Shown piece by piece: positions 151 to 21,239 of a stretch of 37,063 bases of DNA; position 1 is the first letter of the stretch, and each line of letters starts with the position of its first letter. Source of the stretch: Escherichia phage T7; sequence record OL964749.1; one strand, written 5' to 3'. The notes beneath the pieces were generated by a model. That model was not told the origin of the DNA. It did not search any database and saw only the letters and a list, made by a program, of their open reading frames with translations. The position numbers were made by a program, and so were the translations under genes.

Positions 151-345
151 ACCTGTTACAGTCTCCTAAAGTATCCTCCTAAAGTATCCTCCTAAAGTCA
201 CCTCCTAACGTCCATCCTAAAGCCAACACCTAAAGACCCATCAAGTCAACGCCTATCTTAAAGTTTAAACATAAAGACCAGACCTAAAGACCAGACCTAA
301 AGACACTACATAAAGACCAGACCTAAAGACGCCTTGTTGTTAGCC
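151..345. repeat. Left-end array of short CCTAAAG-containing repeats (concatemer junction region)
   Basis: Repeated 12-13 bp units such as CCTAAAGTATCCT (165-177 and 178-190), CCTAAAGTCACCT, CCTAAAGACCAGA, as in the T7 left end. Confidence 0.8.
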
Positions 346-494: not shown

Positions 495-531
495 TTGACT
501 TAAAGTCTAACCTATAGGATACTTACAGCCA
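495..531 (+). promoter_or_regulatory. Strong early sigma70 promoter A1
   Basis: -35 TTGACT (495-500), 17-bp spacer, -10 GATACT (518-523), start near 531; matches the known T7 A1 sequence. Confidence 0.85.
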
Positions 532-642
532 TCGAGAGGGACACGGCGAATAGCCATCCCAATCGACACCGGGGTCAACCGGGCGCACAGTGCCTTCTAG
601 GTGACTTAAGCGCACCACGGCACATAAGGTGAAACAAAACGG

Positions 643-679
643 TTGACAACATGAAGTAAACACGGTACGATGTACCACA
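643..679 (+). promoter_or_regulatory. Early sigma70 promoter A3
   Basis: -35 TTGACA (643-648), 17-bp spacer, -10 TACGAT (666-671); matches T7 A3. The A2 promoter expected between A1 and A3 is absent. Confidence 0.85.
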
Positions 680-789
680 TGAAACGACAGTGAGTCACCA
701 CACTGAAAGGTGATGCGGTCTAACGAAACCTGACCTAAGACGCTCTTTAACAATCTGGTAAATAGCTCTTGAGTGCATGACTAGCGGAT

Positions 790-830
790 AACTCAAGGGT
801 ATCGCAAGGTGCCCTTTATGATATTCACTA
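790..830 (+). promoter_or_regulatory. RNase III processing hairpin R0.3
   Basis: Inverted repeat AAGGGTATCGCAAGGTGCCCTT just upstream of the ocr start, typical of T7 RNase III sites. Confidence 0.55.
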
Positions 831-853
831 ATAACTGCACGAGGTAACACAAG

Positions 854-1549
854 ATGGCTATGTCTAACATGACTTACAACAACGTTTTCGACCACGCTTA
901 CGAAATGCTGAAAGAAAACATCCGTTATGATGACATCCGTGACACTGATGACCTGCACGATGCTATTCACATGGCTGCCGATAATGCAGTTCCGCACTAC
1001 TACGCTGACATCTTTAGCGTAATGGCAAGTGAGGGCATTGACCTTGAGTTCGAAGACTCTGATCTGATGCCTGACACCAAGGACGTAATCCGCATCCTGC
1101 AAGCGCGTATCTATGAGCAATTAACGATTGACCTCTGGGAAGACGCAGAAGACTTGCTCAATGAATACTTGGAGGAAGTCGAGGAAGTCGCACGACAGAA
1201 AGAAATTGACCGCGCTAAGGCCCGTAAAGAACGTCACGAGGGGCGCTTAGAGGCACGCAGATTCAAACGTCGCAACCGCAAGGCACGTAAAGCACACAAA
1301 GCTAAGCGCGAAAGAATGCTTGCTGCGTGGCGATGGGCTGAACGTCAAGAACGGCGTAACCATGAGGTAGCTGTAGATGTACTAGGAAGAACCAATAACG
1401 CTATGCTCCGGGTCAACATGTCCTCTGGGGACTTTAAGGCGCTTGAGGAACGAATCGCGCTGCACTGGCGTAATGCTGACCGGATGGCTATCGCTAATGG
1501 TCTTACGCTCAACATTGATAAGCAACTTGACGCAATGTTAATGGGCTGA
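854..1549 (+). CDS. In-frame fusion: Ocr (gene 0.3 anti-restriction DNA mimic, residues 1 to about 111) joined to the C-terminal roughly 120 aa of gp0.7 (host transcription shut-off domain); kinase domain absent
   Basis: 231-aa ORF; N-terminus [19 protein letters not shown]...[10 protein letters not shown] equals T7 Ocr, then a basic Arg/Lys-rich tail ending 71 bp before gene 1, as gene 0.7 does in T7. Confidence 0.85.
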
Positions 1550-1552
1550 TAG

Positions 1553-1612
1553 TCTTATCTTACAGGTCATCTGCGGGTGGCCTGAATAGGTACGATTTAC
1601 TAACTGGAAGAG
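1553..1612 (+). promoter_or_regulatory. RNase III site R1 upstream of gene 1
   Basis: Hairpin CAGGTCATCTGCGGGTGGCCTG between the fusion ORF stop and the gene 1 start. Confidence 0.6.
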
Positions 1613-1619
1613 GCACTAA

Positions 1620-4271
1620 ATGAACACGATTAACATCGCTAAGAACGACTTCTCTGACATCGAACTGGCTGCTATCCCGTTCAACACTCTGGCTGACCAT
1701 TACGGTGAGCGTTTAGCTCGCGAACAGTTGGCCCTTGAGCATGAGTCTTACGAGATGGGTGAAGCACGCTTCCGCAAGATGTTTGAGCGTCAACTTAAAG
1801 CTGGTGAGGTTGCGGATAACGCTGCCGCCAAGCCTCTCATCACTACCCTACTCCCTAAGATGATTGCACGCATCAACGACTGGTTTGAGGAAGTGAAAGC
1901 TAAGCGCGGCAAGCGCCAGACAGCCTTCCAGTTCCTGCAAGAAATCAAGCCGGAAGCCGTAGCGTACATCACCATTAAGACCACTCTGGCTTGCCTAACC
2001 AGTGCTGACAATACAACCGTTCAGGCTGTAGCAAGCGCAATCGGTCGGGCCATTGAGGACGAGGCTCGCTTCGGTCGTATCCGTGACCTTGAAGCTAAGC
2101 ACTTCAAGAAAAACGTTGAGGAACAACTCAACAAGCGCGTAGGGCACGTCTACAAGAAAGCATTTATGCGAGTTGTCGAGGCTGACATGCTCTCTAAGGG
2201 TCTACTCGGTGGCGAGGCGTGGTCTTCGTGGCATAAGGAAGACTCTATTCATGTAGGAGTACGCTGCATCGAGATGCTCATTGAGTCAACCGGAATGGTT
2301 AGCTTACACCGCCAAAATGCTGGCGTAGTAGGTCAAGACTCTGAGACTATCGAACTCGCACCTGAATACGCTGAGGCTATCGCAACCCGTGCAGGTGCGC
2401 TGGCTGGCATCTCTCCGATGTTCCAACCTTGCGTAGTTCCTCCTAAGCCGTGGACTGGCATTACTGGTGGTGGCTATTGGGCTAACGGTCGTCGTCCTCT
2501 GGCGCTGGTGCGTACTCACAGTAAGAAAGCACTGATGCGCTACGAAGACGTTTACATGCCTGAGGTGTACAAAGCGATTAACATTGCGCAAAACACCGCA
2601 TGGAAAATCAACAAGAAAGTCCTAGCGGTCGCCAACGTAATCACCAAGTGGAAGCATTGTCCGGTCGAGGACATCCCTGCGATTGAGCATGAAGAACTCC
2701 CGATGAAACCGGAAGACATCGACATGAATCCTGAGGCTCTCACCGCGTGGAAACGTGCTGCCGCTGCTGTGTACCGCAAGGACAAGGCTCGCAAGTCTCG
2801 CCGTATCAGCCTTGAGTTCATGCTTGAGCAAGCCAATAAGTTTGCTAACCATAAGGCCATCTGGTTCCCTTACAACATGGACTGGCGCGGTCGTGTTTAC
2901 GCTGTGTCAATGTTCAACCCGCAAGGTAACGATATGACCAAAGGACTGCTTACGCTGGCGAAAGGTAAACCAATCGGTAAGGAAGGTTACTACTGGCTGA
3001 AAATCCACGGTGCAAACTGTGCGGGTGTCGATAAGGTTCCGTTCCCTGATCGCATCAAGTTCATTGAGGAAAACCACGAGAACATCATGGCTTGCGCTAA
3101 GTCTCCACTGGAGAACACTTGGTGGGCTGAGCAAGATTCTCCGTTCTGCTTCCTTGCGTTCTGCTTTGAGTACGCTGGGGTACAGCACCACGGCCTGAGC
3201 TATAACTGCTCCCTTCCGCTGGCGTTTGACGGGTCTTGCTCTGGCATCCAGCACTTCTCCGCGATGCTCCGAGATGAGGTAGGTGGTCGCGCGGTTAACT
3301 TGCTTCCTAGTGAAACCGTTCAGGACATCTACGGGATTGTTGCTAAGAAAGTCAACGAGATTCTACAAGCAGACGCAATCAATGGGACCGATAACGAAGT
3401 AGTTACCGTGACCGATGAGAACACTGGTGAAATCTCTGAGAAAGTCAAGCTGGGCACTAAGGCACTGGCTGGTCAATGGCTGGCTTACGGTGTTACTCGC
3501 AGTGTGACTAAGCGTTCAGTCATGACGCTGGCTTACGGGTCCAAAGAGTTCGGCTTCCGTCAACAAGTGCTGGAAGATACCATTCAGCCAGCTATTGATT
3601 CCGGCAAGGGTCTGATGTTCACTCAGCCGAATCAGGCTGCTGGATACATGGCTAAGCTGATTTGGGAATCTGTGAGCGTGACGGTGGTAGCTGCGGTTGA
3701 AGCAATGAACTGGCTTAAGTCTGCTGCTAAGCTGCTGGCTGCTGAGGTCAAAGATAAGAAGACTGGAGAGATTCTTCGCAAGCGTTGCGCTGTGCATTGG
3801 GTAACTCCTGATGGTTTCCCTGTGTGGCAGGAATACAAGAAGCCTATTCAGACGCGCTTGAACCTGATGTTCCTCGGTCAGTTCCGCTTACAGCCTACCA
3901 TTAACACCAACAAAGATAGCGAGATTGATGCACACAAACAGGAGTCTGGTATCGCTCCTAACTTTGTACACAGCCAAGACGGTAGCCACCTTCGTAAGAC
4001 TGTAGTGTGGGCACACGAGAAGTACGGAATCGAATCTTTTGCACTGATTCACGACTCCTTCGGTACCATTCCGGCTGACGCTGCGAACCTGTTCAAAGCA
4101 GTGCGCGAAACTATGGTTGACACATATGAGTCTTGTGATGTACTGGCTGATTTCTACGACCAGTTCGCTGACCAGTTGCACGAGTCTCAATTGGACAAAA
4201 TGCCAGCACTTCCGGCTAAAGGTAACTTGAACCTCCGTGACATCTTAGAGTCGGACTTCGCGTTCGCGTAA
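1620..4271 (+). CDS. T7 RNA polymerase (gene 1), single-subunit DNA-dependent RNA polymerase
   Basis: 883-aa ORF, MNTINIAKNDFSDIELAAIPFNTLADHYG...ESDFAFA, essentially identical to T7 RNAP. Confidence 0.98.
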   Translation: MNTINIAKNDFSDIELAAIPFNTLADHYGERLAREQLALEHESYEMGEARFRKMFERQLKAGEVADNAAAKPLITTLLPKMIARINDWFEEVKAKRGKRQTAFQFLQEIKPEAVAYITIKTTLACLTSADNTTVQAVASAIGRAIEDEARFGRIRDLEAKHFKKNVEEQLNKRVGHVYKKAFMRVVEADMLSKGLLGGEAWSSWHKEDSIHVGVRCIEMLIESTGMVSLHRQNAGVVGQDSETIELAPEYAEAIATRAGALAGISPMFQPCVVPPKPWTGITGGGYWANGRRPLALVRTHSKKALMRYEDVYMPEVYKAINIAQNTAWKINKKVLAVANVITKWKHCPVEDIPAIEHEELPMKPEDIDMNPEALTAWKRAAAAVYRKDKARKSRRISLEFMLEQANKFANHKAIWFPYNMDWRGRVYAVSMFNPQGNDMTKGLLTLAKGKPIGKEGYYWLKIHGANCAGVDKVPFPDRIKFIEENHENIMACAKSPLENTWWAEQDSPFCFLAFCFEYAGVQHHGLSYNCSLPLAFDGSCSGIQHFSAMLRDEVGGRAVNLLPSETVQDIYGIVAKKVNEILQADAINGTDNEVVTVTDENTGEISEKVKLGTKALAGQWLAYGVTRSVTKRSVMTLAYGSKEFGFRQQVLEDTIQPAIDSGKGLMFTQPNQAAGYMAKLIWESVSVTVVAAVEAMNWLKSAAKLLAAEVKDKKTGEILRKRCAVHWVTPDGFPVWQEYKKPIQTRLNLMFLGQFRLQPTINTNKDSEIDAHKQESGIAPNFVHSQDGSHLRKTVVWAHEKYGIESFALIHDSFGTIPADAANLFKAVRETMVDTYESCDVLADFYDQFADQLHESQLDKMPALPAKGNLNLRDILESDFAFA

Positions 4272-4279
4272 CGCCAAAT

Positions 4280-4302
4280 CAATACGACTCACTATAGAGG
4301 GA
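4280..4302 (+). promoter_or_regulatory. T7 promoter phi1.1A
   Basis: CAATACGACTCACTATAGAGGGA; +1 near 4297. Confidence 0.85.
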
Positions 4303-4354
4303 CAAACTCAAGGTCATTCGCAAGAGTGGCCTTTATGATTGACCTTCTTCCGGT

Positions 4355-4377
4355 TAATACGACTCACTATAGGAGAA
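4355..4377 (+). promoter_or_regulatory. T7 promoter phi1.1B
   Basis: TAATACGACTCACTATAGGAGAA; +1 near 4372. Confidence 0.9.
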
Positions 4378-4455
4378 CCTTAAGGTTTAACTTTAAGACC
4401 CTTAAGTGTTAATTAGAGATTTAAATTAAAGAATTAATAAGAGAGGACTTTAAGT

Positions 4456-4584
4456 ATGCGTAACTTCGAAAAGATGACCAAACGTTCTAACCGTAATGCT
4501 CGTGACTTCGAGGCAACCAAAGGTCGCAAGTTGAATAAGACTAAGCGTGACCGCTCTCACAAGCGTAGCTGGGAGGGTCAGTAA
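4456..4584 (+). CDS. Gene 1.1 protein (42 aa, basic, function unknown)
   Basis: ORF MRNFEKMTKRSNRNARDFEATKGRKLNKTKRDRSHKRSWEGQ with upstream GAGAGGA Shine-Dalgarno; position conserved with T7 gene 1.1. Confidence 0.8.
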   Translation: MRNFEKMTKRSNRNARDFEATKGRKLNKTKRDRSHKRSWEGQ

Positions 4585-4585
4585 G

Positions 4586-4843
4586 ATGGGACGTTTATAT
4601 AGTGGTAATCTGGCAGCATTCAAGGCAGCAACAAACAAGCTGTTCCAGTTAGACTTAGCTGTCATTTATGATGACTGGTATGATGCCTATACAAGAAAAG
4701 ATTGCATACGGTTACGTATTGAGGACAGGAGTGGAAACCTGATTGATACTAGCACCTTCTACCACCACGACGAGGACGTTCTGTTCAATATGTGTACTGA
4801 TTGGTTGAACCATATGTATGACCAGTTGAAGGACTGGAAGTAA
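4586..4843 (+). CDS. Gene 1.2 protein (inhibitor of host dGTPase Dgt), 85 aa
   Basis: MGRLYSGNLAAFKAATNKLFQLDLAVIYDDWYDAYTRKDCIRLRIED...KDWK; matches T7 gp1.2. The ORF-track start at 4547 is an upstream extension. Confidence 0.85.
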   Translation: MGRLYSGNLAAFKAATNKLFQLDLAVIYDDWYDAYTRKDCIRLRIEDRSGNLIDTSTFYHHDEDVLFNMCTDWLNHMYDQLKDWK

Positions 4844-4863
4844 TACGACTCAGTATAGGGACA
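4841..4863 (+). promoter_or_regulatory. T7 promoter phi1.3
   Basis: TAATACGACTCAGTATAGGGACA; +1 near 4858. Confidence 0.85.
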
Positions 4864-4865
4864 AT

Positions 4866-4905
4866 GCTTAAGGTCGCTCTCTAGGAGTGGCCTTAGTCAT
4901 TTAAC
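4866..4905 (+). promoter_or_regulatory. RNase III site R1.3
   Basis: Hairpin TTAAGGTCGCTCTCTAGGAGTGGCCTTAG immediately downstream of phi1.3. Confidence 0.55.
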
Positions 4906-4923
4906 CAATAGGAGATAAACATT

Positions 4924-6003
4924 ATGATGAACATTAAGACTAACCCGTTTAAAGCCGTGTCTTTCGTAGAGTCTGCCATTAAGAAGGCTCTGGATAACGC
5001 TGGGTATCTTATCGCTGAAATCAAGTACGATGGTGTACGCGGGAACATCTGCGTAGACAATACTGCTAACAGTTACTGGCTCTCTCGTGTATCTAAAACG
5101 ATTCCGGCACTGGAGCACTTAAACGGGTTTGATGTTCGCTGGAAGCGTCTACTGAACGATGACCGTTGCTTCTACAAAGATGGCTTTATGCTTGATGGGG
5201 AACTCATGGTCAAGGGCGTAGACTTTAACACAGGGTCCGGCCTACTGCGTACCAAATGGACTGACACGAAGAACCAAGAGTTCCATGAAGAGTTATTCGT
5301 TGAACCAATCCGTAAGAAAGATAAAGTTCCCTTTAAGCTGCACACTGGACACCTTCACATAAAACTGTACGCTATCCTCCCGCTGCACATCGTGGAGTCT
5401 GGAGAAGACTGTGATGTCATGACGTTGCTCATGCAGGAACACGTTAAGAACATGCTGCCTCTGCTACAGGAATACTTCCCTGAAATCGAATGGCAAGCGG
5501 CTGAATCTTACGAGGTCTACGATATGGTAGAACTACATCAACTGTACGAGCAGAAGCGAGCAGAAGGCCATGAGGGTCTCATTGTGAAAGACCCGATGTG
5601 TATCTATAAGCGCGGTAAGAAATCTGGCTGGTGGAAAATGAAACCTGAGAACGAAGCTGACGGTATCATTCAGGGTCTGGTATGGGGTACAAAAGGTCTG
5701 GCTAATGAAGGTAAAGTGATTGGTTTTGAGGTGCTTCTTGAGAGTGGTCGTTTAGTTAACGCCACGAATATCTCTCGCGCCTTAATGGATGAGTTCACTG
5801 AGACAGTAAAAGAGGCCACCCTAAGTCAATGGGGATTCTTTAGCCCATACGGTATTGGCGACAACGATGCTTGTACTATTAACCCTTACGATGGCTGGGC
5901 GTGTCAAATTAGCTACATGGAGGAAACACCTGATGGCTCTTTGCGGCACCCATCGTTCGTAATGTTCCGTGGCACCGAGGACAACCCTCAAGAGAAAATG
6001 TAA
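4924..6003 (+). CDS. ATP-dependent DNA ligase (gene 1.3)
   Basis: 359-aa ORF MMNIKTNPFKAVSFVESAIKK... with the adenylation motif KYDGVRG; matches T7 ligase. Confidence 0.95.
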   Translation: MMNIKTNPFKAVSFVESAIKKALDNAGYLIAEIKYDGVRGNICVDNTANSYWLSRVSKTIPALEHLNGFDVRWKRLLNDDRCFYKDGFMLDGELMVKGVDFNTGSGLLRTKWTDTKNQEFHEELFVEPIRKKDKVPFKLHTGHLHIKLYAILPLHIVESGEDCDVMTLLMQEHVKNMLPLLQEYFPEIEWQAAESYEVYDMVELHQLYEQKRAEGHEGLIVKDPMCIYKRGKKSGWWKMKPENEADGIIQGLVWGTKGLANEGKVIGFEVLLESGRLVNATNISRALMDEFTETVKEATLSQWGFFSPYGIGDNDACTINPYDGWACQISYMEETPDGSLRHPSFVMFRGTEDNPQEKM

Positions 6004-6010
6004 TCACACT

Positions 6011-6038
6011 GGCTCACCTTCGGGTGGGCCTTTCTGCG
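6011..6038 (+). terminator. Early transcription terminator TE (rho-independent, for host RNA polymerase)
   Basis: GC-rich hairpin GGCTCACCTTCGGGTGGGCC followed by TTTCTGCGTTT directly after the ligase stop. Confidence 0.9.
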
Positions 6039-6053
6039 TTTATAAGGAGACAC

Positions 6054-6076
6054 TTTTACGACTCACTAAAGGAGGT
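6054..6076 (+). promoter_or_regulatory. T7 promoter phi1.5 with non-consensus -16/-15 (TTTTACGACTCACTAAAGGAGGT)
   Basis: Matches the class II promoter from -14 to +6; positions -16 and -15 are TT instead of AA, consistent with a deletion junction at the promoter edge. Confidence 0.7.
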
Positions 6077-6083
6077 ACACACC

Positions 6084-6173
6084 ATGATGTACTTAATGCC
6101 ATTACTCATCGTCATTGTAGGATGCCTTGCGCTCCACTGTAGCGATGATGATATGCCAGATGGTCACGCTTAA
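6084..6173 (+). CDS. Gene 1.5 protein (29 aa)
   Basis: ORF MMYLMPLLIVIVGCLALHCSDDDMPDGHA preceded by AAGGAGGT; matches T7 gene 1.5. Confidence 0.7.
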   Translation: MMYLMPLLIVIVGCLALHCSDDDMPDGHA

Positions 6174-6193
6174 TACGACTCACTAAAGGAGAC
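6171..6193 (+). promoter_or_regulatory. T7 promoter phi1.6
   Basis: TAATACGACTCACTAAAGGAGAC; +1 near 6188. Confidence 0.9.
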
Positions 6194-6198
6194 ACTAT

Positions 6199-6465
6199 AT
6201 GTTTCGACTTCATTACAACAAAAGCGTTAAGAATTTCACGGTTCGCCGTGCTGACCGTTCAATCGTATGTGCGAGCGAGCGCCGAGCTAAGATACCTCTT
6301 ATTGGTAACACAGTTCCTTTGGCACCTAGCGTCCACATCATTATCACCCGTTGTGACTTTGAGAAAGCAATAGACAAGAAACGTCCGGTTCTTAGTGTGG
6401 CAGTGACCCGCTTCCCGTTCGTCCGTCTGTTACTCAAACGAATCAAGGAGGTGTTACACCTGTAA
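6199..6465 (+). CDS. Gene 1.6 protein (88 aa here; C-terminal residues may be altered by the adjacent deletion)
   Basis: [32 protein letters not shown]...; position and N-terminus match T7 gene 1.6. Confidence 0.8.
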
Positions 6466-6481
6466 CAAAGGAGCTAACGAT

Positions 6482-6941
6482 ATGACCGAACGTGAACAAG
6501 AGATGATCATTAAGTTGATAGACAATAATGAAGGTCGCCCAGATGATTTGAATGGCTGCGGTATTCTCTGCTCCAATGTCCCTTGCCACCTCTGCCCCGC
6601 AAATAACGATCAAAAGATAACCTTAGGTGAAATCCGAGCGATGGACCCACGTAAACCACATCTGAATAAACCTGAGGTAACTCCTACAGATGACCAGCCT
6701 TCCGCTGAGACAATCGAAGGTGTCACTAAGCCTTCCCACTACATGCTGTTTGACGACATTGAGGCTATCGAAGTGATTGCTCGTTCAATGACCGTTGAGC
6801 AGTTCAAGGGATACTGCTTCGGTAACATCTTAAAGTACAGACTACGTGCTGGTAAGAAGTCAGAGTTAGCGTACTTAGAGAAAGACCTAGCGAAAGCAGA
6901 CTTCTATAAAGAACTCTTTGAGAAACATAAGGATAAATGTT

Positions 6942-6949
<8 letters not shown>
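6482..6949 (+). CDS. Gene 1.7 protein (nucleotide kinase), N-terminally truncated: 155 aa against 196 aa in reference T7
   Basis: ORF MTEREQEMIIKLIDNNEGRPDDLNGCGILCSN...KDKCYA equals the C-terminal 155 aa of gp1.7; AAGGAG lies 8 nt upstream of this internal Met. Confidence 0.8.
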
Positions 6950-7282
<333 letters not shown>

Positions 7283-7285
<3 letters not shown>

Positions 7286-7306
7286 TACGACTCACTATTA
7301 GGGAAG
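7283..7306 (+). promoter_or_regulatory. T7 promoter phi2.5
   Basis: TAATACGACTCACTATTAGGGAAGA. Confidence 0.85.
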
Positions 7307-7350
7307 ACTCCCTCTGAGAAACCAAACGAAACCTAAAGGAGATTAACATT

Positions 7351-8049
7351 ATGGCTAAGAAGATTTTCACCTCTGCGCTGGGTACCGCTGAACCTTACGC
7401 TTACATCGCCAAGCCGGACTACGGCAACGAAGAGCGTGGCTTTGGGAACCCTCGTGGTGTCTATAAAGTTGACCTGACTATTCCCAACAAAGACCCGCGC
7501 TGCCAGCGTATGGTCGATGAAATCGTGAAGTGTCACGAAGAGGCTTATGCTGCTGCCGTTGAGGAATACGAAGCTAATCCACCTGCTGTAGCTCGTGGTA
7601 AGAAACCGCTGAAACCGTATGAGGGTGACATGCCGTTCTTCGATAACGGTGACGGTACGACTACCTTTAAGTTCAAATGCTACGCGTCTTTCCAAGACAA
7701 GAAGACCAAAGAGACCAAGCACATCAATCTTGTTGTGGTTGACTCAAAAGGTAAGAAGATGGAAGACGTTCCGATTATCGGTGGTGGCTCTAAGCTGAAA
7801 GTTAAATATTCTCTGGTTCCATACAAGTGGAACACTGCTGTAGGTGCGAGCGTTAAGCTGCAACTGGAATCCGTGATGCTGGTCGAACTGGCTACCTTTG
7901 GTGGCGGTGAAGACGATTGGGCTGACGAAGTTGAAGAGAACGGCTATGTTGCCTCTGGTTCTGCCAAAGCGAGCAAACCACGCGACGAAGAAAGCTGGGA
8001 CGAAGACGACGAAGAGTCCGAGGAAGCAGACGAAGACGGAGACTTCTAA
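7351..8049 (+). CDS. Single-stranded DNA-binding protein gp2.5
   Basis: 232-aa ORF MAKKIFTSALGTAEPYAYIAKPDYGNEERGFGNPRGVYKVDLTIPN... with acidic C-terminal tail ending ...EADEDGDF. Confidence 0.95.
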   Translation: MAKKIFTSALGTAEPYAYIAKPDYGNEERGFGNPRGVYKVDLTIPNKDPRCQRMVDEIVKCHEEAYAAAVEEYEANPPAVARGKKPLKPYEGDMPFFDNGDGTTTFKFKCYASFQDKKTKETKHINLVVVDSKGKKMEDVPIIGGGSKLKVKYSLVPYKWNTAVGASVKLQLESVMLVELATFGGGEDDWADEVEENGYVASGSAKASKPRDEESWDEDDEESEEADEDGDF

Positions 8050-8469
8050 GTGGAACTGCGGGAGAAAATCCTTGAGCGAATCAAGGTGACTTCCTCTGGG
8101 TGTTGGGAGTGGCAGGGCGCTACGAACAATAAAGGGTACGGGCAGGTGTGGTGCAGCAATACCGGAAAGGTTGTCTACTGTCATCGCGTAATGTCTAATG
8201 CTCCGAAAGGTTCTACCGTCCTGCACTCCTGTGATAATCCATTATGTTGTAACCCTGAACACCTATCCATAGGAACTCCAAAAGAGAACTCCACTGACAT
8301 GGTAAATAAGGGTCGCTCACACAAGGGGTATAAACTTTCAGACGAAGACGTAATGGCAATCATGGAGTCCAGCGAGTCCAATGTATCCTTAGCTCGCACC
8401 TATGGTGTCTCCCAACAGACTATTTGTGATATACGCAAATGGAGGCGACATGGCAGGTTACGGCGCTAA
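8050..8469 (+). CDS. Gene 2.8 protein (139 aa), HNH-type endonuclease-like
   Basis: ORF starting at GTG directly after the 2.5 stop; contains CHRVMSNAPKGSTVLHSCDNPLCCNPEHL, an HNH-like Cys/His motif. Confidence 0.7.
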   Translation: MELREKILERIKVTSSGCWEWQGATNNKGYGQVWCSNTGKVVYCHRVMSNAPKGSTVLHSCDNPLCCNPEHLSIGTPKENSTDMVNKGRSHKGYKLSDEDVMAIMESSESNVSLARTYGVSQQTICDIRKWRRHGRLRR

Positions 8470-9355: not shown

Positions 9356-9377
9356 TAATTGAACTCACTAAAGGGAG

Positions 9378-9378
<1 letters not shown>
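9356..9378 (+). promoter_or_regulatory. T7 promoter phi3.8
   Basis: TAATTGAACTCACTAAAGGGAGA; +1 near 9373. Confidence 0.85.
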
Positions 9379-11239
<1,861 letters not shown>

Positions 11240-11242
<3 letters not shown>

Positions 11243-11262
11243 TACGACTCACTAAAGGCCAC
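11240..11262 (+). promoter_or_regulatory. T7 promoter phi4.3 with altered initially transcribed sequence (GGCCAC instead of GGAGAC)
   Basis: TAATACGACTCACTAAAGG then CCACACAG; consensus through +2, consistent with a deletion junction at +3. Confidence 0.75.
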
Positions 11263-11380
11263 ACAGTCACGCGCTCTGGCGATTCGCTCCAACGAACTGG
11301 CTGACAGTGCATCCACTAAAGTTACCGAGGCTGCCCGTGTGGCAAACCAAGCTCAACAGCTTTCCAAATTCTTTGAGTAA
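11259..11380 (+). pseudogene. Remnant of gene 4.3 lacking RBS, start codon and about 30 N-terminal codons
   Basis: In-frame segment ATQSRALAIRSNELADSASTKVTEAARVANQAQQLSKFFE without an initiator; about 100 bp missing relative to reference. Confidence 0.65.
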
Positions 11381-11399
11381 TCAAACAGGAGAAACCATT

Positions 11400-11669
11400 A
11401 TGTCTAACGTAGCTGAAACTATCCGTCTATCCGATACAGCTGACCAGTGGAACCGTCGAGTCCACATCAACGTTCGCAACGGTAAGGCGACTATGGTTTA
11501 CCGCTGGAAGGACTCTAAGTCCTCTAAGAATCACACTCAGCGTATGACGTTGACAGATGAGCAAGCACTGCGTCTGGTCAATGCGCTTACCAAAGCTGCC
11601 GTGACAGCAATTCATGAAGCTGGTCGCGTCAATGAAGCTATGGCTATCCTCGACAAGATTGATAACTAA
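11400..11669 (+). CDS. Gene 4.5 protein (89 aa)
   Basis: ORF MSNVAETIRLSDTADQWNRRVHINVRNGKATMVYRWKDSK... preceded by CAGGAGAA; the track start at 11307 is an upstream extension. Confidence 0.85.
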   Translation: MSNVAETIRLSDTADQWNRRVHINVRNGKATMVYRWKDSKSSKNHTQRMTLTDEQALRLVNALTKAAVTAIHEAGRVNEAMAILDKIDN

Positions 11670-12068: not shown

Positions 12069-14183
12069 ATGATCGTTTCTGACATCGAAGCTAACGCCCT
12101 CTTAGAGAGCGTCACTAAGTTCCACTGCGGGGTTATCTACGACTACTCCACCGCTGAGTACGTAAGCTACCGTCCGAGTGACTTCGGTGCGTATCTGGAT
12201 GCGCTGGAAGCCGAGGTTGCACGAGGCGGTCTTATTGTGTTCCACAACGGTCACAAGTATGACGTTCCTGCATTGACCAAACTGGCAAAGTTGCAATTGA
12301 ACCGAGAGTTCCACCTTCCTCGTGAGAACTGTATTGACACCCTTGTGTTGTCACGTTTGATTCATTCCAACCTCAAGGACACCGATATGGGTCTTCTGCG
12401 TTCCGGCAAGTTGCCCGGAAAACGCTTTGGGTCTCACGCTTTGGAGGCGTGGGGTTATCGCTTAGGCGAGATGAAGGGTGAATACAAAGACGACTTTAAG
12501 CGTATGCTTGAAGAGCAGGGTGAAGAATACGTTGACGGAATGGAGTGGTGGAACTTCAACGAAGAGATGATGGACTATAACGTTCAGGACGTTGTGGTAA
12601 CTAAAGCTCTCCTTGAGAAGCTACTCTCTGACAAACATTACTTCCCTCCTGAGATTGACTTTACGGACGTAGGATACACTACGTTCTGGTCAGAATCCCT
12701 TGAGGCCGTTGACATTGAACATCGTGCTGCATGGCTGCTCGCTAAACAAGAGCGCAACGGGTTCCCGTTTGACACAAAAGCAATCGAAGAGTTGTACGTA
12801 GAGTTAGCTGCTCGCCGCTCTGAGTTGCTCCGTAAATTGACCGAAACGTTCGGCTCGTGGTATCAGCCTAAAGGTGGCACTGAGATGTTCTGCCATCCGC
12901 GAACAGGTAAGCCACTACCTAAATACCCTCGCATTAAGACACCTAAAGTTGGTGGTATCTTTAAGAAGCCTAAGAACAAGGCACAGCGAGAAGGCCGTGA
13001 GCCTTGCGAACTTGATACCCGCGAGTACGTTGCTGGTGCTCCTTACACCCCAGTTGAACATGTTGTGTTTAACCCTTCGTCTCGTGACCACATTCAGAAG
13101 AAACTCCAAGAGGCTGGGTGGGTCCCGACCAAGTACACCGATAAGGGTGCTCCTGTGGTGGACGATGAGGTACTCGAAGGAGTACGTGTAGATGACCCTG
13201 AGAAGCAAGCCGCTATCGACCTCATTAAAGAGTACTTGATGATTCAGAAGCGAATCGGACAGTCTGCTGAGGGAGACAAAGCATGGCTTCGTTATGTTGC
13301 TGAGGATGGTAAGATTCATGGTTCTGTTAACCCTAATGGAGCAGTTACGGGTCGTGCGACCCATGCGTTCCCAAACCTTGCGCAAATTCCGGGTGTACGT
13401 TCTCCTTATGGAGAGCAGTGTCGCGCTGCTTTTGGCGCTGAGCACCATTTGGATGGGATAACTGGTAAGCCTTGGGTTCAGGCTGGCATCGACGCATCCG
13501 GTCTTGAGCTACGCTGCTTGGCTCACTTCATGGCTCGCTTTGATAACGGCGAGTACGCTCACGAGATTCTTAACGGCGACATCCACACTAAGAACCAGAT
13601 AGCTGCTGAACTACCTACCCGAGATAACGCTAAGACGTTCATCTATGGGTTCCTCTATGGTGCTGGTGATGAGAAGATTGGACAGATTGTTGGTGCTGGT
13701 AAAGAGCGCGGTAAGGAACTCAAGAAGAAATTCCTTGAGAACACCCCCGCGATTGCAGCACTCCGCGAGTCTATCCAACAGACACTTGTCGAGTCCTCTC
13801 AATGGGTAGCTGGTGAGCAACAAGTCAAGTGGAAACGCCGCTGGATTAAAGGTCTGGATGGTCGTAAGGTACACGTTCGTAGTCCTCACGCTGCCTTGAA
13901 TACCCTACTGCAATCTGCTGGTGCTCTCATCTGCAAACTGTGGATTATCAAGACCGAAGAGATGCTCGTAGAGAAAGGCTTGAAGCATGGCTGGGATGGG
14001 GACTTTGCGTACATGGCATGGGTACATGATGAAATCCAAGTAGGCTGCCGTACCGAAGAGATTGCTCAGGTGGTCATTGAGACCGCACAAGAAGCGATGC
14101 GCTGGGTTGGAGACCACTGGAACTTCCGGTGTCTTCTGGATACCGAAGGTAAGATGGGTCCTAATTGGGCGATTTGCCACTGA
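12069..14183 (+). CDS. DNA polymerase gp5 (family A, thioredoxin-binding, with 3'-5' exonuclease)
   Basis: 704-aa [39 protein letters not shown]... with exonuclease and polymerase motifs; matches T7 gp5. Confidence 0.98.
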
Positions 14184-14198
14184 TACAGGAGGCTACTC

Positions 14199-14402
14199 AT
14201 GAACGAAAGACACTTAACAGGTGCTGCTTCTGAAATGCTAGTAGCCTACAAATTTACCAAAGCTGGGTACACTGTCTATTACCCTATGCTGACTCAGAGT
14301 AAAGAGGACTTGGTTGTATGTAAGGATGGTAAATTTAGTAAGGTTCAGGTTAAAACATTGTGGTTGACGAAGATGTGCTTATTTTCACATGGGACGAAGT
14401 AA
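14199..14402 (+). CDS. Gene 5.3 (HNH endonuclease-like), frameshift-truncated to 67 aa against 118 aa in reference
   Basis: N-terminus MNERHLTGAASEMLVAYKFTKAGYTVYYPMLTQSKEDLVVCKDGKFSKVQVKT matches gp5.3, then a short out-of-frame tail; about 100 bp missing. Confidence 0.7.
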   Translation: MNERHLTGAASEMLVAYKFTKAGYTVYYPMLTQSKEDLVVCKDGKFSKVQVKTLWLTKMCLFSHGTK

Positions 14403-16479: not shown

Positions 16480-16746
16480 ATGTGTTTCTCACCGAAAATT
16501 AAAACTCCGAAGATGGATACCAATCAGATTCGAGCCGTTGAGCCAGCGCCTCTGACCCAAGAAGTGTCAAGCGTGGAGTTCGGTGGGTCTTCTGATGAGA
16601 CGGATACCGAGGGCACCGAAGTGTCTGGACGCAAAGGCCTCAAGGTCGAACGTGATGATTCCGTAGCGAAGTCTAAAGCCAGCGGCAATGGCTCCGCTCG
16701 TATGAAATCTTCCATCCGTAAGTCCGCATTTGGAGGTAAGAAGTGA
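16480..16746 (+). CDS. Gene 6.7 protein (88 aa, virion protein)
   Basis: ORF MCFSPKIKTPKMDTNQIRAVEPAPLTQEVSSVEFGG...; the track start at 16459 is an upstream extension. Confidence 0.8.
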   Translation: MCFSPKIKTPKMDTNQIRAVEPAPLTQEVSSVEFGGSSDETDTEGTEVSGRKGLKVERDDSVAKSKASGNGSARMKSSIRKSAFGGKK

Positions 16747-19184: not shown

Positions 19185-20108
19185 ATGGCTGAATCTAATG
19201 CAGACGTATATGCATCTTTTGGCGTGAACTCCGCTGTGATGTCTGGTGGTTCCGTTGAGGAACATGAGCAGAACATGCTGGCTCTTGATGTTGCTGCCCG
19301 TGATGGCGATGATGCAATCGAGTTAGCGTCAGACGAAGTGGAAACAGAACGTGACCTGTATGACAACTCTGACCCGTTCGGTCAAGAGGATGACGAAGGC
19401 CGCATTCAGGTTCGTATCGGTGATGGCTCTGAGCCGACCGATGTGGACACTGGAGAAGAAGGCGTTGAGGGCACCGAAGGTTCCGAAGAGTTTACCCCAC
19501 TGGGCGAGACTCCAGAAGAACTGGTAGCTGCCTCTGAGCAACTTGGTGAGCACGAAGAGGGCTTCCAAGAGATGATTAACATTGCTGCTGAGCGTGGCAT
19601 GAGTGTCGAGACCATTGAGGCTATCCAGCGTGAGTACGAGGAGAACGAAGAGTTGTCCGCCGAGTCCTACGCTAAGCTGGCTGAAATTGGCTACACGAAG
19701 GCTTTCATTGACTCGTATATCCGTGGTCAAGAAGCTCTGGTGGAGCAGTACGTAAACAGTGTCATTGAGTACGCTGGTGGTCGTGAACGTTTTGATGCAC
19801 TGTATAACCACCTTGAGACGCACAACCCTGAGGCTGCACAGTCGCTGGATAATGCGTTGACCAATCGTGACTTAGCGACCGTTAAGGCTATCATCAACTT
19901 GGCTGGTGAGTCTCGCGCTAAGGCGTTCGGTCGTAAGCCAACTCGTAGTGTGACTAATCGTGCTATTCCGGCTAAACCTCAGGCTACCAAGCGTGAAGGC
20001 TTTGCGGACCGTAGCGAGATGATTAAAGCTATGAGTGACCCTCGGTATCGCACAGATGCCAACTATCGTCGTCAAGTCGAACAGAAAGTAATCGATTCGA
20101 ACTTCTGA
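19185..20108 (+). CDS. Capsid assembly (scaffolding) protein gp9
   Basis: 307-aa acidic ORF MAESNADVYASFGVNSAVMSGGSVEEHEQNMLALD...; matches T7 gp9. Confidence 0.95.
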   Translation: MAESNADVYASFGVNSAVMSGGSVEEHEQNMLALDVAARDGDDAIELASDEVETERDLYDNSDPFGQEDDEGRIQVRIGDGSEPTDVDTGEEGVEGTEGSEEFTPLGETPEELVAASEQLGEHEEGFQEMINIAAERGMSVETIEAIQREYEENEELSAESYAKLAEIGYTKAFIDSYIRGQEALVEQYVNSVIEYAGGRERFDALYNHLETHNPEAAQSLDNALTNRDLATVKAIINLAGESRAKAFGRKPTRSVTNRAIPAKPQATKREGFADRSEMIKAMSDPRYRTDANYRRQVEQKVIDSNF

Positions 20109-20121
20109 TAGACTTCGAAAT

Positions 20122-20144
20122 TAATACGACTCACTATAGTGAGA
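20122..20144 (+). promoter_or_regulatory. T7 class III promoter phi10 carrying a G-to-T change at +2 (TATAGTGAGA instead of TATAGGGAGA)
   Basis: TAATACGACTCACTATAGTGAGACCACAACGGTTTCCCTCTAGAAATAATTTTGTTTAACTTTAAGAAGGAGATATACATATG; otherwise identical to the phi10 promoter and leader used in pET vectors. Confidence 0.9.
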
Positions 20145-20201
20145 CCACAACGGTTTCCCTCTAGAAATAATTTTGTTTAACTTTAAGAAGGAGATATACA
20201 T

Positions 20202-21239
20202 ATGGCTAGCATGACTGGTGGACAGCAAATGGGTACTAACCAAGGTAAAGGTGTAGTTGCTGCTGGAGATAAACTGGCGTTGTTCTTGAAGGTATTTGGC
20301 GGTGAAGTCCTGACTGCGTTCGCTCGTACCTCCGTGACCACTTCTCGCCACATGGTACGTTCCATCTCCAGCGGTAAATCCGCTCAGTTCCCTGTTCTGG
20401 GTCGCACTCAGGCAGCGTATCTGGCTCCGGGCGAGAACCTCGACGATAAACGTAAGGACATCAAACACACCGAGAAGGTAATCACCATTGACGGTCTCCT
20501 GACGGCTGACGTTCTGATTTATGATATTGAGGACGCGATGAACCACTACGACGTTCGCTCTGAGTATACCTCTCAGTTGGGTGAATCTCTGGCGATGGCT
20601 GCGGATGGTGCGGTTCTGGCTGAGATTGCCGGTCTGTGTAACGTGGAAAGCAAATATAATGAGAACATCGAGGGCTTAGGTACTGCTACCGTAATTGAGA
20701 CCACTCAGAACAAGGCCGCACTTACCGACCAAGTTGCGCTGGGTAAGGAGATTATTGCGGCTCTGACTAAGGCTCGTGCGGCTCTGACCAAGAACTATGT
20801 TCCGGCTGCTGACCGTGTGTTCTACTGTGACCCAGATAGCTACTCTGCGATTCTGGCAGCACTGATGCCGAACGCAGCAAACTACGCTGCTCTGATTGAC
20901 CCTGAGAAGGGTTCTATCCGCAACGTTATGGGCTTTGAGGTTGTAGAAGTTCCGCACCTCACCGCTGGTGGTGCTGGTACCGCTCGTGAGGGCACTACTG
21001 GTCAGAAGCACGTCTTCCCTGCCAATAAAGGTGAGGGTAATGTCAAGGTTGCTAAGGACAACGTTATCGGCCTGTTCATGCACCGCTCTGCGGTAGGTAC
21101 TGTTAAGCTGCGTGACTTGGCTCTGGAGCGCGCTCGCCGTGCTAACTTCCAAGCGGACCAGATTATCGCTAAGTACGCAATGGGCCACGGTGGTCTTCGC
21201 CCAGAAGCTGCTGGTGCAGTGGTTTTCAAAGTGGAGTAA
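20202..21239 (+). CDS. Major capsid protein gp10A
   Basis: 345-aa ORF MASMTGGQQMGTNQGKGVVAAGDKLALFLKVFGGEVLTAFARTSV...; identical to T7 gp10A including the T7-tag N-terminus. Confidence 0.98.
   Translation: MASMTGGQQMGTNQGKGVVAAGDKLALFLKVFGGEVLTAFARTSVTTSRHMVRSISSGKSAQFPVLGRTQAAYLAPGENLDDKRKDIKHTEKVITIDGLLTADVLIYDIEDAMNHYDVRSEYTSQLGESLAMAADGAVLAEIAGLCNVESKYNENIEGLGTATVIETTQNKAALTDQVALGKEIIAALTKARAALTKNYVPAADRVFYCDPDSYSAILAALMPNAANYAALIDPEKGSIRNVMGFEVVEVPHLTAGGAGTAREGTTGQKHVFPANKGEGNVKVAKDNVIGLFMHRSAVGTVKLRDLALERARRANFQADQIIAKYAMGHGGLRPEAAGAVVFKVE

Follow-up and report, generated by a model that had tools for sequence, protein, structure and literature searches.

The window, that is, the whole 37,063-nt stretch of Escherichia phage T7 DNA analysed here (record OL964749.1), is the complete genome of a laboratory T7 mutant and aligned end to end to the T7 reference genome NC_001604 (39,937 bp) with approximately 99.8% identity in twelve collinear blocks, between which deletions intervene. 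In its early region, the ORF listing gave one ATG-started frame of 231 aa (854-1549 on the plus strand, TGA stop included), corresponding to a 27-kDa protein. Direct translation revealed that residues 1-111 of this protein are those of T7 Ocr except for G70D, with only the C-terminal six residues of Ocr (YEEDEE) absent, and BLASTP gave 102/103 identities for this part, the low-complexity end being trimmed by the program. Residues 108-231 aligned to gp0.7 residues 236-359 with two mismatches, and the tail proper (112-231) corresponds to gp0.7 240-359, 118 of the 120 residues being identical to T7 gp0.7. Since EVEE occurs in both parent proteins, the fusion may be counted either as 110 + 121 or as 111 + 120 residues. 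The stop codon and the ATG of gene 1 are spaced as in T7, and the intervening DNA contains in T7 the minor E. coli promoter C, annotated at T7 3113. The alignments to both parents confirm that the first gene is an in-frame Ocr::gp0.7 C-terminal fusion.

Domain searches agreed with this composition. The Pfam family ocr (PF08684) was matched at residues 3-103 over its full profile (positions 1-101 of 101, E = 1.7e-62), and the Ocr structure in the PDB (1s7z) was matched over residues 1-115 (E = 2.3e-67). In PHROGs, the ocr-like family phrog_2568 covered residues 1-128, and the kinase family phrog_2828 was matched at residues 103-231 by only the last 134 positions of its profile (233-366 of 366). 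For gp0.7 itself, no family was matched in the Pfam version used, and the protein database lists PF27024. According to a 2026 study, gp0.7 consists of a kinase domain (1-242) and a shut-off domain (243-359), the latter of which binds DNA and, on its own, is described as toxic and inhibitory to host transcription (PMC13645617). With these limits, residues 240-359 being the sole gp0.7 part of the fusion, the kinase domain is absent and the shut-off/DNA-binding domain is wholly present. The fused ORF is annotated as "protein kinase" in OL964748 (854-1549) and MZ375235 (420-1115), wrongly so, as it contains no kinase domain.

The two halves of the fusion are opposite in charge. The Ocr part is acidic (30 Asp+Glu versus 6 Lys+Arg in residues 1-111; net charge -24), with G70D adding one further acidic residue, and the charge calculation gave a net value of the opposite sign for the gp0.7 tail (Table 1). 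Full-length gp0.7 was modelled with AlphaFold2 from 38 close homologues, which predicted helices at 230-305, 307-316, 319-342, and 349-357 (pLDDT 58-84), that is, a very long helix followed by three short ones; the kinase domain was poorly modelled (mean pLDDT 55), and the model is usable in the C-terminal helices only.

Table 1. Coordinates of the fused gene, its surroundings, and the other deletions of the window, together with the Yersinia phage fusions (positions refer to the window unless another phage is named)
Feature	Position	Strand	Description or basis
Fused ORF	854..1549	+	Ocr 1-111 :: gp0.7 240-359; alignments, Pfam, PHROGs
Ocr portion, codons 1-111	854..1186	+	Equal to T7 925-1256 apart from G70D
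Deletion junction, single remaining copy of AGGAAGTCGAGGA	1173..1185	+	Junction alignment, BLAST overlap
gp0.7 residues 240-359	1187..1546	+	Complete C-terminal shut-off/DNA-binding domain; net charge +16
G>A, Ocr G70D	1062	+	G in 15/15 natural Ocr homologues aligned
T>C, fusion W186R = gp0.7 W314R	1409	+	W in 24/26 aligned homologues, F in 2
T>C, fusion F190S = gp0.7 F318S	1422	+	Variable site: F, L, P, Q or T
Spacer, gene 0.7 to gene 1, 70 nt	1550..1619	+	No substitutions versus T7 3101-3170
Gene 1, T7 RNA polymerase, 883 aa	1620..4271	+	ORF listing; OL964748 annotation
Deletion of T7 7608-7763	junction 6056/6057		Exactly gene 1.4
Deletion of T7 8163-8262	junction 6455/6456		100 bp, 1.6/1.7 boundary
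Deletion of T7 11186-11453	junction 9370-9378		Start of gene 3.8
Deletion of T7 13350-13439	junction 11256-11265		Start of 4.3
Deletion of T7 14172-14271	junction 11987/11988		100 bp in 4.7
Deletion of T7 16642-16741	junction 14357/14358		100 bp in 5.3
Deletion of T7 19848-20216	junction 17451/17452		Gene 7.7
Deletion of T7 39565-39664	junction 36799/36800		100 bp near right end
YpP-Y fusion	1501-2187 (YpP-Y)		Plague-diagnostic Yersinia phage
phiA1122 fusion	906-1328 (phiA1122)		Plague-diagnostic Yersinia phage

Megablast against NC_001604 placed window 574-1185 on T7 645-1256 and window 1173-6056 on T7 2724-7607, indicating that 1,480 bp are missing relative to wild-type T7 and that the two segments overlap by 13 bp. 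This overlap is a direct repeat, AGGAAGTCGAGGA, present once in gene 0.3 (T7 1244-1256) and once in gene 0.7 (T7 2724-2736); the left breakpoint lies inside the first copy (AGGAAGTCGAGG(A)) and the right breakpoint inside the second. An exact-repeat search of T7 500-3200 showed that no longer direct repeat bridges genes 0.3 and 0.7, the sole longer repeat in that range being a 17-mer common to promoters A2 and A3. The lost DNA comprises the last six codons of 0.3, genes 0.4, 0.5, and 0.6A/B, and gp0.7 codons 1-239. The repeat is read in the same codon phase in genes 0.3 and 0.7 (E-V-E-E), and the product is therefore in frame. A preliminary description of the DNA had proposed just such a fusion, with Ocr intact to about residue 111, a tail alignable to gp0.7 residues of about 239-359, an ORF ending where gene 0.7 ends, and an early-region deletion of roughly 1.5 kb that removed 0.4, 0.5, 0.6, and the N-terminal kinase domain, all of which the comparison with T7 bears out. 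It had also suggested recombination at a short repeat and named the tandem GAGGAAGTC GAGGAAGTC, which is indeed present at 1172-1189. The repeat origin stands, but the tandem 9-mer does not hold as the substrate: wild-type gene 0.7 already reads AAGGAAGTC GAGGAAGTC, gene 0.3 contributing just the initial base of the tandem, and thus the tandem is not the recombined sequence, the 13-bp repeats 1,480 bp apart taking its place.

Relative to a pure deletion of the reference, three substitutions were identified in the ORF, all of them missense and two at conserved residues (G70D, W186R, and F190S; Table 1). Within the shut-off domain, the nearly invariant W314 is replaced by R, and F318S falls at a variable position. 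Such a non-conservative replacement of an almost invariant tryptophan suggests that the tail is not strongly constrained in the lineage of the window. The three changes are distributed unevenly among related records, since OL964748 has all three, OL964750 has W314R only, and G70D is absent from both OL964750 and MZ375235. G70D converts TGG to TGA on the plus strand, W314R affects a base beside GGG, and F318S sits upstream of a TGGGG run at a distance of 4-6 nt, a geometry with which Cas9 escape would be compatible, as a hypothesis drawn from base context. Over the genome, 13 of 41 substitutions fell in GG/CC dinucleotides versus 19% expected (p = 0.04, all bases), and among G/C bases the count was 13/26 versus 40% expected (p = 0.2), an enrichment too weak to claim. 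G70D, W186R, and F190S are probably later events in a long-passaged lineage that was possibly subject to Cas9 selection.

The same junction was detected elsewhere. A 96-bp junction probe was covered by nine GenBank T7 records (MZ375235, MZ375236, MZ375238, OL964748, OL964750, PV223880, PV223881, PV223882, and PV223883) from at least two submission series. The frame, whose openness in independent sequences the preliminary description had raised as a check, proved uninterrupted in five other records, as translated for OL964748, OL964750, and MZ375235 and as inferred from full-length tblastn matches for MZ375236 and MZ375238. MZ375235, named "T7_20L", carries an unmutated fusion and has a length of 38,457 bp, exactly that of the wild type minus 1,480 bp, the fusion deletion being its only length change. 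PV223881.1 (506-2000), from a recombinant T7 of a different submission series, has the junction and a 1-nt deletion just after it (about locus position 755), so that its product consists of Ocr 1-111, 21 out-of-frame residues, and a stop; this truncation resembles the BREX-escape variants of Isaev et al. (PMC7261183). PV223880, PV223882, and PV223883 gave the same 95-nt probe match length as PV223881 and appear to carry the same 1-nt deletion.

The closest GenBank relative of the window was OL964748, "Mutant Escherichia phage T7 clone T7_1t1", which is heavily deleted and differs from the window by one 75-bp segment, one 100-bp deletion, one single-base gap, and 19 substitutions. The 75 bp present in the window and lacking in OL964748 (at approximately 4281-4297 of the latter) equal the phi1.1A/phi1.1B spacing, and the loss probably reflects recombination between the phi1.1A and phi1.1B copies. 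By clone names and deletion design, not by a printed accession, the window matches the work of Yuan et al. (2022; PMC9825161), in which T7 was taken through hundreds of transfers on MG1655 with Cas9, using up to eight spacers per non-essential gene and a "cassette-100" design. In that study, spacer or PAM regions accounted for about one quarter of the T7 point mutations (PMC9825161).

Several further changes accompany the fusion in the window. Besides the deletions listed in Table 1, several of which measure exactly 100 bp and thereby suggest designed editing cassettes, a 95-bp deletion (T7 550-644, window 574-582), flanked by the short direct repeats GGGGTCAACCGG, has eliminated E. coli promoter A2 and left A1 and A3; it is also found in OL964748. 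At 362-432, the sequence just upstream of phiOL (TAATCATTGTCTTTATTAATACAAC...) occurs as a tandem triplicate, a 43-bp insertion relative to T7 that is common to OL964748 with one single-base difference. In both terminal repeats, 1 bp and 8 bp are missing versus T7 (window 33, 69; 36946, 36982), and about ten changes are clustered at 186-225 in a region of CCTAAAG-type repeats, where they may be real or assembly noise. Gene 7.3, whose product is a virion protein needed for infectivity, has a 12-bp in-frame deletion (window 17195, T7 19579-19590), and the 7.3 annotated in OL964748 is also 12 nt short. Outside the genome ends, the 41 substitutions show a strong G>T and G>A bias, with 7 synonymous versus approximately 28 non-synonymous changes, and include four changes in T7 RNA polymerase (P100Q, Q184R, R357H, and E477D). 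Two substitutions affect the initially transcribed sequences of T7 late promoters, namely G>T at +2 of TATAGGGAGA at phi10 (window 20140, T7 22905) and A>C at about +6 at phi13 (window 24514, T7 27279). In addition, the tail-fibre gene 17 carries N158D (window 32330, T7 35095), and the same A>G also reached fixation in a separate, independent evolution study of T7 (Tom et al. 2018, PMC6042481), so that this change is probably a general laboratory adaptation.

The fusion is already published and partly tested, and it is a recurrent spontaneous deletion of laboratory T7. By sequencing several in-house T7 stocks, Isaev et al. (2020, NAR, PMC7261183) identified a deletion of 1256-2735 with 12-bp flanking repeats, the product being a 231-aa ORF named the "0.3-0.7 fusion", which arose spontaneously in rich medium at 37 °C. 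These authors equated the deletion with H1 of Studier, naming also Cunningham et al. 1997 and Bull et al. 2012, and the comparison with the classical Studier deletions proposed in the preliminary description is answered on the strength of their identification (PMC7261183). The anticipated retention of anti-restriction is likewise documented for the unmutated fusion, as the fusion phage still defeats EcoKI and lyses EcoKI-positive AB1157 like the wild type (PMC7261183). Against BREX, which it counteracts in part, the fusion phage performs about 10-fold worse than wild-type T7, the protection afforded by BREX being approximately 100-fold versus the fusion phage and approximately 10-fold versus the wild type (PMC7261183). 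On BREX-positive cells, escape mutants truncate the gp0.7 part, and phages with the truncated tail are viable and better in anti-BREX activity; the retained gp0.7 domain, in the words of Isaev et al., "might be important" (PMC7261183). No published test of transcription inhibition or DNA binding by the shut-off domain behind Ocr was found in the literature. More generally, early-region deletions are reported to be frequent when T7 is propagated in rich medium (PMC7261183, PMC2680503, PMC6042481, PMC6009699), and loss of gene 0.7 is common and beneficial on serial transfer, gp0.7 being deleterious in rich medium (PMC2680503, PMC6042481, PMC6009699).

A protein-collection search with the fusion uncovered two other chimeras, in the Yersinia phages YpP-Y and phiA1122. 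Protein 0.3 of YpP-Y (AFK13391, 228 aa) is an in-frame Ocr::gp0.7 fusion with the whole shut-off domain, 93% identical over the full length; the RefSeq copy is labelled "serine-threonine kinase". Its junction lies one repeat unit further along, corresponding to a 10-bp repeat GAGGAAGTCG (T7 1243 and 2732), and the protein is three residues shorter than the T7 fusion; the different junction marks it as an independent event in another phage species. In phiA1122, R, and Y, protein 0.3 (NP_848263, 140 aa) joins Ocr in frame to the end of gp0.7, and the distance from the end of the ORF to gene 1 downstream is, in phiA1122, equal to that of the T7 fusion. Here the deletion is larger, only the last 35 gp0.7 residues are present, and the junction, lying in CTTGAGGAA, reads LNEYLEERIA. 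The junction microhomologies are thus GAGGAAGTC in YpP-Y and CTTGAGGAA in phiA1122. Taken together, the junction sequences indicate a minimum of three origins of in-frame Ocr::gp0.7 tail fusions in this phage group, and the location of all junctions in same-phase Glu-Glu codon runs would explain the frame without selection for the chimera.

The window very probably (about 95%) carries the recurrent spontaneous early-region deletion of laboratory T7, and nothing found in the analysis speaks against this identification. Its formation would be explained by replication slippage or short-homology recombination between the two AGGAAGTCGAGGA copies, a step suggested by the repeat itself. The repeat-to-repeat event removed 1,480 bp and automatically gave an in-frame product from the shared codon phase; expression of the fusion would presumably rely on the start codon and upstream region of gene 0.3, both of which are unchanged. 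In the literature, the spread of the deletion is attributed to the cost of gp0.7 in rich medium, and the Ocr half would still block the type I enzyme EcoKI, with anti-BREX activity lowered, as published for the unmutated fusion. An alternative is that the deletion was engineered or Cas9-driven, either designed or selected because it removed all Cas9 targets from 0.4 to early 0.7. The window does contain several exact 100-bp deletions and an exact whole-gene deletion of 1.4, typical of designed cassettes, and non-essential early genes were targeted with up to eight spacers each (PMC9825161); moreover, as the sole length change in MZ375235 ("T7_20L"), the fusion deletion must have been early or pre-existing. 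However, 1,480 bp fits neither cassette design (100 bp or one gene), both deletion ends lie in a native 13-bp repeat, the loss of a large "gp0.3-0.6" fragment is listed by Yuan et al. as outside their design, with gp0.3 not removable (PMC9825161), and the same junction occurs in stocks never exposed to Cas9 (PMC7261183), all of which makes this origin unlikely. Far less credible still is an assembly artefact, in which short reads would have been collapsed across the repeat. The small clustered differences in the terminal repeats and at window 186-225 are possible assembly noise, but a repeat of only 13 bp is much too small for an assembly to collapse on it, the total length agrees with the sum of the deletions, and nine other records share the junction, as do stocks that were sequenced independently. 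Both the engineered deletion and the artefact were rejected, given the native repeat ends, the shortness of the repeat, and the occurrence of the junction elsewhere.

It might also be supposed that the chimera itself was selected, an acidic DNA mimic joined to a basic shut-off domain forming a useful or detoxified bifunctional protein. The existence of three different in-frame Ocr::gp0.7 junctions (in T7 laboratory stocks; in YpP-Y; and in phiA1122, R, and Y), the retention of the entire shut-off domain in the T7 and YpP-Y fusions, and the opposite charges of the two halves are consistent with such a role. In a more specific form, the fusion would be self-neutralising, its halves masking each other so that the shut-off toxicity is tamed and the anti-type I activity kept; mutual masking would, speculatively, explain the weaker anti-BREX activity, and selection of such a fusion would explain the three or more origins of in-frame tail fusions. 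Nevertheless, the frame is set by Glu-codon microhomologies (GAGGAA...), making selection needless for an in-frame outcome; phages with a truncated tail are viable and counteract BREX better (PMC7261183), and PV223881 carries such a frameshift; phiA1122 keeps just 35 tail residues; and in the window W314R alters a residue that hardly varies. Selection of the chimera is accordingly considered improbable, and the self-neutralising version is regarded as an equally long shot.

The retention of Ocr and the loss of the kinase in the window fit passage on an EcoKI-positive K-12 host. E. coli K-12 MG1655 is EcoKI-positive, and Ocr may have been kept while the kinase was lost because of passage on this host. 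Beyond this lineage, many laboratory "wild-type" T7 stocks silently carry the 0.3-0.7 fusion deletion, which alters how T7 scores against defence systems, since such phages are BREX-sensitive and lack the kinase known to disarm several defences. The details new here are the three missense changes, the kinship with OL964748, and the analogous fusions of YpP-Y and phiA1122 with different junctions.

In comparison with known systems, the window shares its breakpoints, flanking repeat, 231-aa ORF, and lost genes with the published T7 0.3-0.7 fusion (PMC7261183), from which it differs by the three extra missense changes G70D, W186R, and F190S and by its genome, which has lost nine more segments of 90-369 bp in addition to the 12-bp in-frame deletion in 7.3. 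Other early-region deletions of T7 are known from experimental evolution; one with different breakpoints, reported by Tom et al. 2018 (PMC6042481), spans 1,084-3,212 and fuses codon 53 of gene 0.3 to gene 1. Like the deletion in the window, it entails a spontaneous loss of 0.4-0.7 on passage and an in-frame fusion starting from gene 0.3; unlike it, Ocr is destroyed and the RNA polymerase truncated, whereas the deletion in the window would keep a working Ocr.
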